Part shown: positions 60,984 to 64,000 of the stretch, one piece after another
How positions within the stretch are numbered: position 1 is the first letter of the stretch
How the letters are laid out: each line of letters begins with the position of its first letter
From: an uncultured Armatimonadetes bacterium
GTDB lineage: Bacteria > Armatimonadota > UBA5829 > DTJY01
DNA: 64,000 bases
NCBI GenBank assembly: GCA_963717145.1
Contig: OY970325.1
Location: 1,184,001 to 1,248,000 of the forward strand
Reading direction: 5' to 3'
Translations under genes and position numbers: made by a program
Notes under the pieces: model-generated
Seen by the model: the letters and a program-made list of their open reading frames with translations, nothing else
What the model was told of the DNA's origin: nothing
Database searches by the model: none

Positions 60984-62107
60984 AAACTTGCCTCCCATTC
61001 CGAGCCGGCCTTGTATTTGCCCTCCTGACCGTAGTCGCTTCGACAAGCTTGTTGGCCCAGCTCAAGGAAAAGATCACGATCCGCTGGCAACGTCACGCCA
61101 ATCAGCCGCAATCGCTCACGATATCGCCCGGCGCGAACTACTTCGGCGGCGTCGATAAAGACGGCACGGTGCGCTTCTATGACGCGCAGGGCAAGCTCCT
61201 CTGGACCAAGCGGGTCCCCGGCGCTACCGACGTGCTCATCGCGCGGAATGGACAGAGCCTCCTGGTCTATTCCCGCCTCAATCCGGTCCACAGGACCGTG
61301 CGCTTCTTCCGCCGGGACGGTCGCCTGCTCTGGGAGCACGAGGTCGATGGCAGCGTATGGGCCGGTGCGGTGACTCCCGATGGGCAGTACGCAGCCGTCA
61401 CGACCGGCGAGAAGTTCATCTACCGGTATCTCCCACATCCCACCAGCCCGAAGTTTCGTCGCTGGAGACTCCCTGGTATCGGAGACAGCCTGACGTTCAC
61501 CCCGGACAGCAAGTACCTGGTAGTGGGCACATGGCAGGCCTCGACCATTGCCTGCTATGACCTGGAGGGGAAAGAGAAGTGGATACTCGCGCAGAAGTCA
61601 GACCGCCAGTACGAGCTGCAGAACAGCGGTGATGGAAAGCGGATACTCGGAATCCGACCGTCCACTCAGCACACTCCACTGGCTGAGATAAGCCTGTGGG
61701 ATTCCTCGGGCCAAGGCATCTGGCGGAGGGATCTGAAGGGCTTCGACGTGGCGGCGCGCATCTCCCCTCAGAGCAAGTATGTGGCGGTAAGCTATGCCAC
61801 AATCCTCTCCCACAAGGACAAAGAGATTGTCGAGCGCAAAGTTGCGGTCTATGACGCGAAGGGTGATCTCTCATGGGAGAAGGGTGGTCTCTTCTTCGGC
61901 CCACGTCTGATCGCGCTCTCTCCGACCGGCGACTCCGTGATCGTCTCCGACGGCGCCCGGTCGCTATATAACATCGACAGCCACGGACGGATTCTCTCCA
62001 AGCGGACATTCGGCGGTCAGATCAAGATGGCGGTATCCTCCGAGGATGGCCGCAGGATACTCCTGTACTGCGGGGATGGCTGGCTGTATCTTCTCGAAGT
62101 GGCGTAG
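60980..62107 (+). CDS. secreted WD40/PQQ-like beta-propeller protein
   Basis: Signal peptide from MKTCLP; repeated DxxGxLLW and TPDG blades. Confidence 0.75.
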   Translation: MKTCLPFRAGLVFALLTVVASTSLLAQLKEKITIRWQRHANQPQSLTISPGANYFGGVDKDGTVRFYDAQGKLLWTKRVPGATDVLIARNGQSLLVYSRLNPVHRTVRFFRRDGRLLWEHEVDGSVWAGAVTPDGQYAAVTTGEKFIYRYLPHPTSPKFRRWRLPGIGDSLTFTPDSKYLVVGTWQASTIACYDLEGKEKWILAQKSDRQYELQNSGDGKRILGIRPSTQHTPLAEISLWDSSGQGIWRRDLKGFDVAARISPQSKYVAVSYATILSHKDKEIVERKVAVYDAKGDLSWEKGGLFFGPRLIALSPTGDSVIVSDGARSLYNIDSHGRILSKRTFGGQIKMAVSSEDGRRILLYCGDGWLYLLEVA

Positions 62108-62110
62108 ACC

Positions 62111-62268
62111 CTTTGGAGTGCGGTGGCTCGACACCGCTTTGCCCAACACAGCGTTGTGACACCCCACATGTTGGTTCTGGAGTTGGACTCCAGAACCCTC
62201 GGCCTGTTGGGGGTTCTGGAGTCCAACTCCAGAACCAACATGTGGGGAGGGCGCTCCGGCACTCCAAA
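62111..62268. repeat. composite REP: GGAGTTGGACTCC-type palindrome (62162..62247) nested in a GGAGTGCGG-type element
   Basis: Outer TTTGGAGTG...CACTCCAAA; inner inverted arms of about 35 bp. Confidence 0.8.
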
Positions 62269-62276
62269 AGAAAGAA

Positions 62277-62307
62277 ATCTCCCCCGAGTTACGGATCGGG
62301 GGAGATC
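62277..62307 (-). terminator. probable terminator downstream of the LuxR gene
   Basis: ATCTCCCCCGA...TCGGGGGAGAT hairpin followed on the minus strand by TTCTTTCTTTT. Confidence 0.6.
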
Positions 62308-62403
62308 TCATAGGAATTGCGACACGGCAAAGCAATCATTCGCCACATCGGCTACTGGTACCGGACCATCCGTCAGGACGGCCCGGTCCGCTTCGGCCGT
62401 TTC

Positions 62404-62667
62404 TTACGCGGATCTAACCACAGCAGGCTCAAGCGGTATCAGGCCCAGGCTGGTTGCTCTGCGGAAGGCTTGCACTCTGTTGCTGACTTGCAGCTTCTCG
62501 TAGATATTCGCGAGGTGGAAGTCCACTGTCCGCTTGCTCACGTACAGGTCCTCCGCGACCTCTCTACTTGACTTTCCTTCGATAACGAGAGTCAGAACCT
62601 CCTGCTCACGTTTCGTCAGGTGTATGGTTCGTTCATCCCGTATCTGAGGCATAGTCATAGCCGTCAT
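62404..62667 (-). CDS. solo LuxR-type (GerE-like) HTH transcriptional regulator
   Basis: LTKREQEVL...G.SSREVA..L.VS.RTV.FHL.NIYEKLQV.NR; AAGGAG RBS. Confidence 0.93.
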   Translation of the reverse strand: MTAMTMPQIRDERTIHLTKREQEVLTLVIEGKSSREVAEDLYVSKRTVDFHLANIYEKLQVSNRVQAFRRATSLGLIPLEPAVVRSA

Positions 62668-62840
62668 ACCGTAACTCCTTTCTCGTGTCGCCGCTTCTGG
62701 ATAGTTTCTTCCATAGTTTTGCCGGGTTCTGAGAGGAAAAAATACTCACGTGTGAGGAGTCTTTCCTCTGCGGCATGGAAGCCACCAGTAAGGAGTTATG
62801 CCACGTATGACGGTTTTTCGGCTATTGGAAATGCGGTTGC

Positions 62841-64000
62841 TTACTTATGGGGCAGAACCTCGAAGAACGCGACGGACACGCCGTGCGGGTTGAAGAGCGA
62901 GTACGCCTCCCGCAGGTCCGGTCTGCGCCTGAGTTCACCGTAGAGCAGGTTCGCGCGAGGCTGCTTGGTCTCAGGCAGGCTGATCAGTATCCACTTGATC
63001 TTGAGCTTGGCGAGCTGGGCGGCTCCAGAAGCTTGTCCGTCGAATCCCACCAGGCCGAGCGGACCAGGTGAGCGTAAGTGCTCTGTTGCAGATACGCCAT
63101 CTGTCTCGGGTTGCAGGTCAGCACGAAGTCATCCGGCTTGATGTTCTGCTTGATCCAACCCGCCGCCGTGAACATGCCACATTGCGGCCCGTTCGCACGG
63201 CACTTCAGCGCCTGCGTCCCCATATCGAACCGCATCCTCGAAATGCCCGGAGCGGCAAGCGCAAGCACAAGCAGCACGAATCCGACATACGTGAACCTTC
63301 TCCGGAATCCGGCGAGGTTCGCCCTGCGCCCCATGAACATGCGTATGAGGTGGAATCCGAGCGCGATCAGCGGGATGCCGTACACCGCCTGGAGGTAGTG
63401 GGGCCACAGACCCGTGCGCGTCCGAAGCCAGTACAGTGTCAACGCCTCTGCGCCGACCAGTCCGATGAGCCCGGGAATGCTACCGGCCGCGAGCAGTCCT
63501 GTCGCCGACGCGGCACATATCGCCGGGAATGATGGCAAGACCAGGCGCGCACCCCACAGGTTGCGCAACATGCTGAAAAAGAGGCAGAAGGTCAGCGGGA
63601 GGATCAGCATCGCCACTACCGCCCCGGCGTTCGACTTGATGACGCCATCCGGCGCGACGGAGATGCGCTTCCTCAGCGAGACGAGCAGAATCACCGACCC
63701 GAGAACAGCGAGGGCCAGAAAGACATACGGAATGTCGGCCTCTGAGAGGTGCTGGGCCATCAGCTTGTTGAGGCTCGGCGCGGTTCGGCCCACATAATCC
63801 TGGCGCTCACCGCGGATCTGATTGATGAGGTACGATGCTTGCGGGAGCAGCCCGGACTTGAACTGCAGGAATCCCACTCCGGCGAGCACCGCGCCGAGAA
63901 TAAGCGCCAGACCGGGAAGGTAGGTCCACCTGCGCCCGCGAGCGTTCAGCAGCGATCCCACGGCAAGCGCCGGCGCAGACAGGACGAGCAGGTACTCCTT
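62841..64000 (-). CDS. polytopic membrane protein (GT-C/ArnT-like), 5'-truncated, probable frameshift near 63030
   Basis: ORF 62984..63961 is open to the window edge; ARLVLP and AAGWIKQN motifs; C-terminus continues in ORF 62841..63050. Confidence 0.6.

Follow-up and report, generated by a model that had tools for sequence, protein, structure and literature searches.

A fold-back over the start region of a solo LuxR-type regulator gene in an uncultured Armatimonadetes bacterium

Why should the gene of a small regulator be preceded by a sequence that can pair with its own ribosome-binding site (RBS)? The question is raised by LuxR1, a gene on the minus strand (62404..62667) of a 64,000-nt stretch of DNA from an uncultured Armatimonadetes bacterium (contig OY970325.1, positions 1,184,001 to 1,248,000), which we call the window and in which we count positions from the first letter. 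By its open reading frame (ORF) and its Pfam GerE match, LuxR1 encodes an 87-residue regulator of the GerE/LuxR type that consists of a helix-turn-helix (HTH) domain only. A first-pass annotation, made from the sequence alone, had noticed that about 150 nt fold back over the Shine-Dalgarno (SD) sequence and the start codon of this gene, and had taken them for an undescribed, dedicated cis-regulatory RNA. In our analysis the structure proved real and unusual and could silence LuxR1 on long transcripts. It belongs to a known kind of element, the SD-sequestering fold-back, and gives the impression of a local safeguard or a remnant rather than of a new kind of RNA switch.

The fold-back and the burial of the start region

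The structure has two arms, one on either side of the LuxR1 leader, and all features described in this section are read on the minus strand. The 3′ arm (62661..62687) is the translation initiation region itself, with the SD AAGGAG (62680-62675), the ATG 7 nt behind it (62667-62665), and the first codons, and is invariant or nearly so throughout the family. The 5′ arm (62783..62813) is an inverted copy of that region, with an anti-start segment CCGTCATAC (62813-62805) and an anti-SD segment TAACTCCTT (62798-62790). An inverted-repeat search returned both pairings, 62661-62669 with 62805-62813 (9 nt, 100% complementary) and 62672-62687 with 62783-62798 (16 nt, 88%), as well as an outer pair, 62657-62672 with 62810-62825 (16 nt, 81%), and an apical one, 62732-62749 with 62752-62769 (18 nt, 83%). 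The outer pair extends the rod at 62810..62825, where AUAGCC pairs with GGCUAU at 62657-62662. The apex is a hairpin of −14.5 kcal/mol, AGAGGAAAGA...UUUUUCCUCU, built around CUCA/UGAG (62732..62769) and containing a second ACUCCU word. The second anti-SD word, GACUCCUC (62752-62759), lies in the 5′ strand of this hairpin; the same strand, AGAGGAAAGA, in addition resembles the SD region, and its partner is the conserved T-rich block UUUUUCCUCU, an arrangement that looks like an anti-SD/SD-mimic pair.

RNAfold gave a single rod of −57.9 kcal/mol for 62655-62820, spanning the fold-back at 62661-62813, and none of 200 dinucleotide shuffles was as stable (mean, −38.6 ± 3.8 kcal/mol; z = −5.04). Sequence and position of the element as first annotated thus stood. 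The helices drawn at that time form 45 canonical pairs with −48.2 kcal/mol, and the minimum free energy structure shares with them the outer arms, GCCG/CGGC, AGAGGAAA/UUUCCUCU, and the apex and departs from them only in the middle of the rod. The element was also rightly held to be unrelated to the local families of repetitive extragenic palindromes (REP): a 191-nt query had one match in the 5.37-Mb genome, which was the query itself. A cmscan of 62000-64000 against Rfam 15 (E ≤ 10) returned no match on 62661-62813, the ROSE and fourU thermometers and the known leaders included, and a terminator scan flagged nothing within 62668-62841; the apex hairpin is not terminator-like, as its inner stem has 4 pairs, whereas an intrinsic terminator has a G+C-rich stem of at least 5 pairs and a T run directly behind it.

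The SD and the start codon are indeed buried. Eighteen of the 19 bases from −16 to +3 are paired, every one with a partner at least 60 nt away. Such a number of paired bases (18 or more) occurred in 11 of 1,473 AGGAG-bearing ORF starts of the genome, and 18 or more with long-range partners in only 1 of the 1,473. Stable folds upstream of genes are frequent in this genome, with z ≤ −4 in 22 and z ≤ −5 in 18 of 170 sampled upstream regions, and the raw energy of the duplex between start region and upstream sequence places LuxR1 at rank 112 of 1,473 (rank 19 after adjustment for GC content). The unusual feature is the completeness of the burial and not the stability of the fold.

The cost of this burial depends on where the RNA begins. 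To open −16 to +5 at 37°C requires 17.6 kcal/mol in an RNA that starts at 62840 and 15.0 kcal/mol in one that starts at 62820, compared to 7.6, 8.0, and 6.8 kcal/mol in shorter RNAs starting at 62789, 62749, and 62698, respectively; at 15°C the long leader costs 21.5 kcal/mol. The difference between long and short RNA is 10.8 kcal/mol for LuxR1 versus 0.8 ± 3.0 kcal/mol in 300 random genes, 3 of which reach 10.8. In a distal-shuffle test, in which the ensemble cost of opening −16 to +5 was calculated with 175 nt of upstream RNA and only the distal 93 nt were shuffled, LuxR1 stood at 17.8 kcal/mol against 8.8 ± 1.4 kcal/mol, and none of the 28 shuffles reached the observed value.

Conservation of the arm and of the leader

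The gene itself is widespread. In accordance with its annotation as a solo, receiver-less LuxR protein, Pfam finds GerE at residues 17-70 of 87 (E = 1e-20) and no further domain, neither a receiver nor an autoinducer-binding domain; all other models that match, weaker ones for HTH domains or sigma region 4, fall on these residues. Orthologs are present in 39 of 61 related genomes, the genome under study included, and in 327 confirmed stretches of genome contigs, 80 of which were retained. The relatives are entered as Armatimonadota in public records, and LuxR1 is common across genomes that carry this label.

The 5′ arm does not share this distribution. Of the 10 other genomes in the family of the window, 7 have the gene, and DNA similarity begins only at about 62740-62749 (approximately −80), which covers just the apex and the 3′ half of the rod. 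A metagenome scan with an invariant 21-mer of the leader added 18 further stretches and led to 21 distinct family leaders (labels of the form L003 denote stretches from relatives). The duplicates L114, L116, L121, and L130, and L119, which lacks a start codon after the motif, were left out of this set; L126, with too little upstream DNA, was excluded from the duplex and distal-shuffle tests, and L129 was outside the latter. A homologous 5′ arm is present only in L003, the nearest genome (95% amino acid identity), and in L122 (85% DNA identity over 747 nt, with the same gene upstream). Both fold with UAACUCC against GGAGUUA and with the outer arm against the region of the start codon, and a 13-mer of the arm, TGGCATAACTCCT, is invariant in all three sequences. 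The interior of the rod differs in both, with inserted hairpins in L003 and a stronger inner stem in L122 (CCUCA/UGAGG, then AUUUUUU). Conservation of the arm in these two relatives is weak evidence.

The conservation of the pairing in homologs, on which the first-pass annotation had made its proposal depend, is largely lacking. Among 20 family leaders, a duplex between upstream sequence and start region beyond that of shuffled sequences was found only in the window (0/200) and L003 (1/200), and a shorter target left only the window (8/400), L034 (12/400), and, marginally, L122 (21/400) standing out. Start regions with at least 16 paired bases occurred in 4 of 51 orthologous leaders compared to 107 of 1,473 starts in the genome, which is the background rate. 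In the distal-shuffle test, L113 (z = 2.9), L128 (z = 3.8), and L122 (z = 3.3) each went beyond all 28 shuffles, L003 was weak (z = 1.4; 3/28), and the remaining 14 of the 19 leaders were unremarkable. The distal sequences of L113 and L128 are not homologous to the arm of the window and nevertheless occlude the start region; both leaders have a co-directional upstream gene. As judged from these sequences, the fold-back is not a conserved RNA element of the LuxR1 gene family.

Two sets of candidates for further arms were rejected. Upstream words that resembled covariation in L115, L120, and L124 (CGTAGC.., pairing with GGAGCTACG) and in L113 were dropped, since their duplexes were not beyond shuffles (153/400, 87/400, 68/400, and 232/400, respectively), and ACTCCT words in L004 and L033, which a MAFFT alignment suggested as homologs of the arm, were indistinguishable from chance.

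What the family does keep is the control region between the arms. The proximal leader (62668..62745, minus strand; about 80 nt) is conserved throughout the family, and its parts TGGAA and GCGGCGA..GAAAGGAG are kept in 51 of 51 leaders. The (A/G)TGGAA box has T in 49 and G, G, A, and A in all 51 leaders; two variable positions follow and then A (43/51) and T (34/51), the window having A at the last place. The (A/G)GCGGCGA..GAAAGGAG block begins 6 to 10 nt after the box in all 51 and runs into the start codon. This conservation is one of sequence and not of RNA structure: RNAalifold found 0 pairs in the proximal leader of the 51 and 4 pairs, none of them compensatory, in the 21 family leaders. 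A consensus RNA structure, as would befit a dedicated cis-regulatory RNA, is absent from the very part that is conserved.

The proximal leader reads best as a promoter followed by a short 5′ untranslated region (UTR). In the window, the invariant box A-TGGAA-GAAA (62705..62714, minus strand) would fit an extended −10 element (TGn + AAnnAT), with a predicted transcription start site (TSS) at about 62698 and a leader of about 31 nt. This start would coincide with the head of the conserved block AGAAGCGGCGACACGAGAAAGGAG (62675..62698, minus strand), the putative short 5′ UTR, which is single-copy in the genome. A weak −35-like hexamer, TCTCAG (62729..62734, minus strand), may lie 18 nt before AAGAAA; family-wide, TCTCAA stands 17 to 18 nt upstream of the −10-like hexamer, and L115 and L123 have TTGAAA-N17-(TG)AATTAT at the same two places. 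A scan for canonical sigma-70 promoters (at least 8/12 matches, up to 260 nt upstream; 145 nt in the case of L126) found none in 14 of the 21 family leaders, that of the window included. By eye, sigma-54-, ECF-, SigH-, and SigB-type readings of TGGAA/GCGGCGA were rejected as well: the spacing varies (RGnGGC 6 to 10 nt after the nine-base box) and second half-sites are missing.

Canonical promoters are in use elsewhere in the genome, at both GerE paralogs of LuxR1 (TTGACA-N17-TAAAAT or TATACT). The second paralog (LuxR2; 85 residues) lies just beyond the window (L112 4306-4675 = G000:C1:1250305-1250674), divergent to a glycosyltransferase operon, has TTGACA-N17-TAAAAT, and begins its leader of about 85 nt with a hairpin of 7 pairs (GTGTGGA..TCCACAC). 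The third, at G000 996003, has TTGACA-N17-TATACT. The leaders of the paralogs measure 85 to 105 nt.

The same box could instead open a mini-ORF or could merely be a promoter box. In the window, a possible upstream ORF, MEETIQKRRHEKGVTV*, runs from 62714 to 62664 (62664..62714, minus strand), and its stop overlaps the LuxR1 ATG (ATGA). Across the 51 leaders, the RTG of RTG-GAA is ATG in 40, GTG in 9, and ACG in 2, and the frame reads M/V/T-E plus zero to three codons and then stops in 34; stops fall at codon 3 (13 leaders), 5 (3), 6 (18), or 16 (2), and the rest overlap as ATGA (12), are in frame with LuxR1 (2), or have no stop in view (1). There is no preceding SD, and the frame relative to the conserved block varies between families. 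The upstream ORF is doubtful, since neither its length nor its frame is conserved in relatives.

Possible roles of the fold-back

Tentatively, and at less than even odds, we favour the reading that the 5′ arm blocks translation of the regulator on read-through transcripts, while the regulator's own, shorter transcript escapes. The arm, at −123 to −146, lies upstream of the control region, with the putative promoter box at −38 to −47, and each candidate placement of the promoter would put the TSS between the two arms. Only RNAs with their 5′ end upstream of 62813 could be affected by the arm, a diverged inverted copy of the SD and start region. Such RNAs most plausibly come from read-through of the operon upstream, which is on the same strand and by Pfam comprises Glycos_transf_2 (GT2), DUF2304, EamA-like, and PMT_2 genes. 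Its promoter, the canonical TTGACA-N18-TATATT, lies beyond the window (L112 4201-4172) and is divergent from that of LuxR2. Its last gene, for a GT39-like membrane glycosyltransferase (PMT_2; 3′ part at 62841..64000, minus strand), has its end 27 nt ahead of the arm, and a scan between its stop and LuxR1 detected neither a terminator-like nor a promoter-like site; the first intrinsic-terminator-like hairpin downstream of the operon (14 pairs and a T run; 62274..62309, minus strand) follows LuxR1. In read-through RNA the rod would form and make the RBS expensive to open (about 15 to 18 kcal/mol), and we propose that the regulator is therefore not translated from the operon message. Its own transcript, which we infer to start between the arms at about 62698 from the extended −10-like TGGAA box, would be devoid of the 5′ arm and have an open start region (about 7 kcal/mol). 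In this way, synthesis of an HTH regulator would be insulated from neighbouring transcription. From the mechanisms listed in the first-pass annotation, this retains the switch by alternative TSS, with the read-through transcript silenced and the transcript from the predicted TSS free.

A frameshift divides PMT_2 into two minus-strand ORFs, 62984..64000 and 62841..63050, which overlap at 62984-63050. In L122, PMT_2 is intact and in one frame to its end, reading ...AWWDSATKYAEPARLAKLKVKW... Either the gene of the window has become a pseudogene or the assembly is in error here.

The neighbourhood of LuxR1 has been rearranged, as the window and L122 have the glycosyltransferase operon where eight family leaders (L033, L032, L034, L113, L115, L123, L127, and L128) have a co-directional TPR-like gene that ends 146 to 280 nt upstream of LuxR1 and encodes a protein ending ...AL(S/T/A)xKMP(E/D/Q)P... 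In L003 and L004, two GerE paralogs are divergent neighbours and the operon is absent. Leaders occluded by their distal sequence were found in 4 of 10 cases with and 0 of 9 cases without a co-directional upstream gene (one-sided Fisher's p of about 0.05, calculated by hand, for non-independent rows and an orientation judged by eye); we do not use this association as support, since the rows are not independent.

A precedent for such a shield comes from transposons. Davis, Simons, and Kleckner reportedly described in 1985 a "fold-back inhibition" of transposase translation in IS10/Tn10 transcripts that come from outside promoters. In IS10, and as predicted for LuxR1, the start region has its complement in a segment that precedes the promoter of the gene itself, so that both arms occur only in read-through RNA, which is silent, and the gene's own transcript would begin between the arms. 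Unlike IS10, LuxR1 is a chromosomal HTH regulator and not a transposase, has no mobile-element ends, and forms a rod of about 150 nt with an apex hairpin, and its TSS and the read-through are both predicted. Since this GerE regulator lies in a locus that is syntenic in relatives and not in a mobile element, its fold-back may act in the manner of IS10 fold-back inhibition without belonging to that class.

More doubtful is the stronger claim that an inverted copy of the RBS gave a chromosomal transcription factor gene an IS10-style shield, that such shields arose more than once in the family (as the distal occluders of L113 and L128 would suggest), and that the translational insulation of regulators is a selected trait. 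If the insulation is true, it would be a clear case outside mobile elements of translation being shielded from the transcription of a newly adjoining operon; it would show the origin of such a device by inverted duplication of the start region and bear on the independent control of regulators after changes in gene order.

Several observations weigh against insulation. The antisense strand of the fold-back is equally stable (−60.9 kcal/mol; z = −5.24), as that of a plain DNA inverted repeat would be, and nothing singles out the mRNA strand as the selected one. The arm of the window is identical to that of L122 at 22 of 24 positions, no better than fourfold-degenerate sites (39/43), and to that of L003 at 21 of 24 versus 31 of 41, a difference of doubtful significance; since coding and SD constraints freeze one arm, compensatory changes cannot be scored. 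In L003 the arm is present although no co-directional gene lies within 1.1 kb. Conversely, L033, L032, L034, L115, and L123 have a co-directional upstream gene without occlusion beyond shuffles (z = −0.72 to 0.93), and L127, a close relative of L128, is weak in the distal-shuffle test (z = 1.3; 3/28). The predicted promoter has its flaws, too: the −10-like hexamer AAGAAA of the window is devoid of the usual final T, as in 17 of the 51 leaders, the −35 is weak with best matches of 2 to 5 of 6, and there are other placements, with the −10 at CAAAAC (from a MAFFT alignment with the LuxR2 promoter) or the TSS near 62749. RNA data come from one metatranscriptome run (Logan contigs; share, 0.06) with 8 pieces at a depth of about 3. 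There, a near-identical contig (316 nt, 2 mismatches, 24 letters not fitting) covers 62458-62749 and reaches upstream of the predicted TSS, as expected of read-through, but no RNA contig covers 62750-62813 with the 5′ arm, at a depth that is low and with DNA carry-over possible. RNA contigs show presence at most and not ends, and therefore these settle nothing on read-through.

Close behind the insulation comes a neutral origin, which we regard as possible, if rather unlikely: template switching would have produced an inverted duplication of about 25 to 40 nt of the leader and start region in the common ancestor of the window, L122, and L003, and the repeat would not have decayed yet and would have no regulatory role. 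Indeed, two blocks of the 5′ arm match the reverse-complemented start region at 9/9 positions each, only the middle between them being replaced, both strands fold equally well, and the arm is confined to the closest relatives and changes at about the neutral rate compared to L122. Furthermore, orthologs as a whole show background occlusion, and structured intergenic DNA is frequent in this genome, as the 22 of 170 regions with z ≤ −4 attest. However, the anti-SD 13-mer is unchanged in L003, where fourfold sites are 76% and the adjacent interior of the rod only 55% identical (22/40), a burial as complete as this is seen in 1 of 1,473 gene starts, and L113 and L128 have occluders that are not homologous to this one. 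If the repeat is neutral, the lasting result is the leader sequence conserved in 51 of 51 leaders (TGGAA, then GCGGCGA..GAAAGGAG), which offers a definite target to studies of promoters and operators in a phylum that is little known.

It is unlikely that LuxR1's own transcript has a long 5′ UTR in which the fold-back serves as a dedicated cis-regulatory RNA, opened by heat, a small RNA (sRNA), RNase III, or a ligand. The stable fold over SD and AUG would suit such a switch, and the 85- to 105-nt leaders of the paralogs tell us that long leaders occur in the gene family. However, only 27 nt without a promoter-like site separate the upstream stop from the arm, Rfam has no match, the arm is not kept where the gene and the proximal leader are, no covariation is available, and opening would cost 17.6 kcal/mol at 37°C and 21.5 kcal/mol at 15°C. 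RNA thermometers such as ROSE and fourU likewise mask the SD and start codon by base pairing, but they are short imperfect UTR hairpins, whereas the fold of LuxR1 has −58 kcal/mol and no counterpart in Rfam, and its opening cost at 37°C is far above the 7 to 8 kcal/mol of the short leaders. The rpoS mRNA leader has an inhibitory hairpin that is opened by DsrA, RprA, and ArcZ. As in LuxR1, an upstream anti-SD arm pairs there with the start region of a regulator across about 100 nt, but the rpoS arm is part of a mapped long 5′ UTR and conserved together with its sRNA partners, whereas the arm of LuxR1 has homologs only in L003 and L122.

Very unlikely is translational coupling, in which ribosomes that terminate on PMT_2 would melt the outer stem and open the LuxR1 start on a polycistronic RNA. 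Long-range coupling of this kind is known for the coat and replicase genes of MS2, where, as here, a long-range structure hides a downstream start that upstream translation could open. In line with this, the upstream stop of L122 lies 7 nt before the outer stem, and the outer extension in the window begins 15 nt after the stop. Unlike in the MS2 type, the upstream stop precedes the arm, by 27 nt in the window and 7 nt in L122, and the upstream gene is frameshifted in the window and absent in L003: the main frame of the window's PMT_2 already comes to its stop at 62984, some 170 nt short of the arm, and the core arm lies 27 nt past the stop of the second frame. The size of the ribosome footprint is established, and 27 nt exceeds the reach of a terminating ribosome.

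Least probable of all is an element of the operon's 3′ end, in which the apex hairpin and a U run would terminate transcription or the rod would stabilise or process the operon mRNA, the SD pairing being incidental; the hairpin is followed by, and partly built of, UAUUUUUU, and the inner stem of L122 is stronger and runs into AUUUUUU, but the site in the window is not terminator-like, with 4 pairs in the inner stem and the U run inside the outer stem, the T-rich block is kept in relatives without the hairpin, and the match of 9 + 9 nt to the SD and start codon would be left unexplained. A precedent that joins the two functions is the left end of IS200, which combines a terminator against impinging transcription with a 5′-UTR stem-loop that sequesters the SD (PMC4513863). 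As proposed for LuxR1, IS200 joins SD sequestration by an upstream inverted repeat to a guard against outside transcription, but its SD hairpin lies within its own 5′ UTR and its terminator is separate, whereas the anti-SD arm of LuxR1 probably lies outside its own transcript and no terminator-like site was detected. Among the papers listed by a literature search, none tied LuxR genes of Armatimonadetes to a leader structure.

Further observations around the locus

All but one of the Rfam matches in 62000-64000 fall on a palindrome at 62160-62251; the other, at 63165-63201, is below threshold. The palindrome is near-perfect over 90 nt (62160-62249; CCCCACATGTTGGTTCTGGAGTTGGACTCCAGAACC...), lies between the terminator of LuxR1 and a convergent beta-propeller gene, and attracts spurious, sub-threshold microRNA matches on both strands. 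It is probably one of the local REP-like families.

A further leader-like sequence was found beyond the window, at G000:C1:103607-103643 (minus strand). It reads TCTCAAAT-N13-TGGAAT...GGCGGGGGTGG, is akin to the leaders of Fimbriimonas-type orthologs, and is followed by repeat-like DNA and no GerE gene; it may be an orphaned leader.

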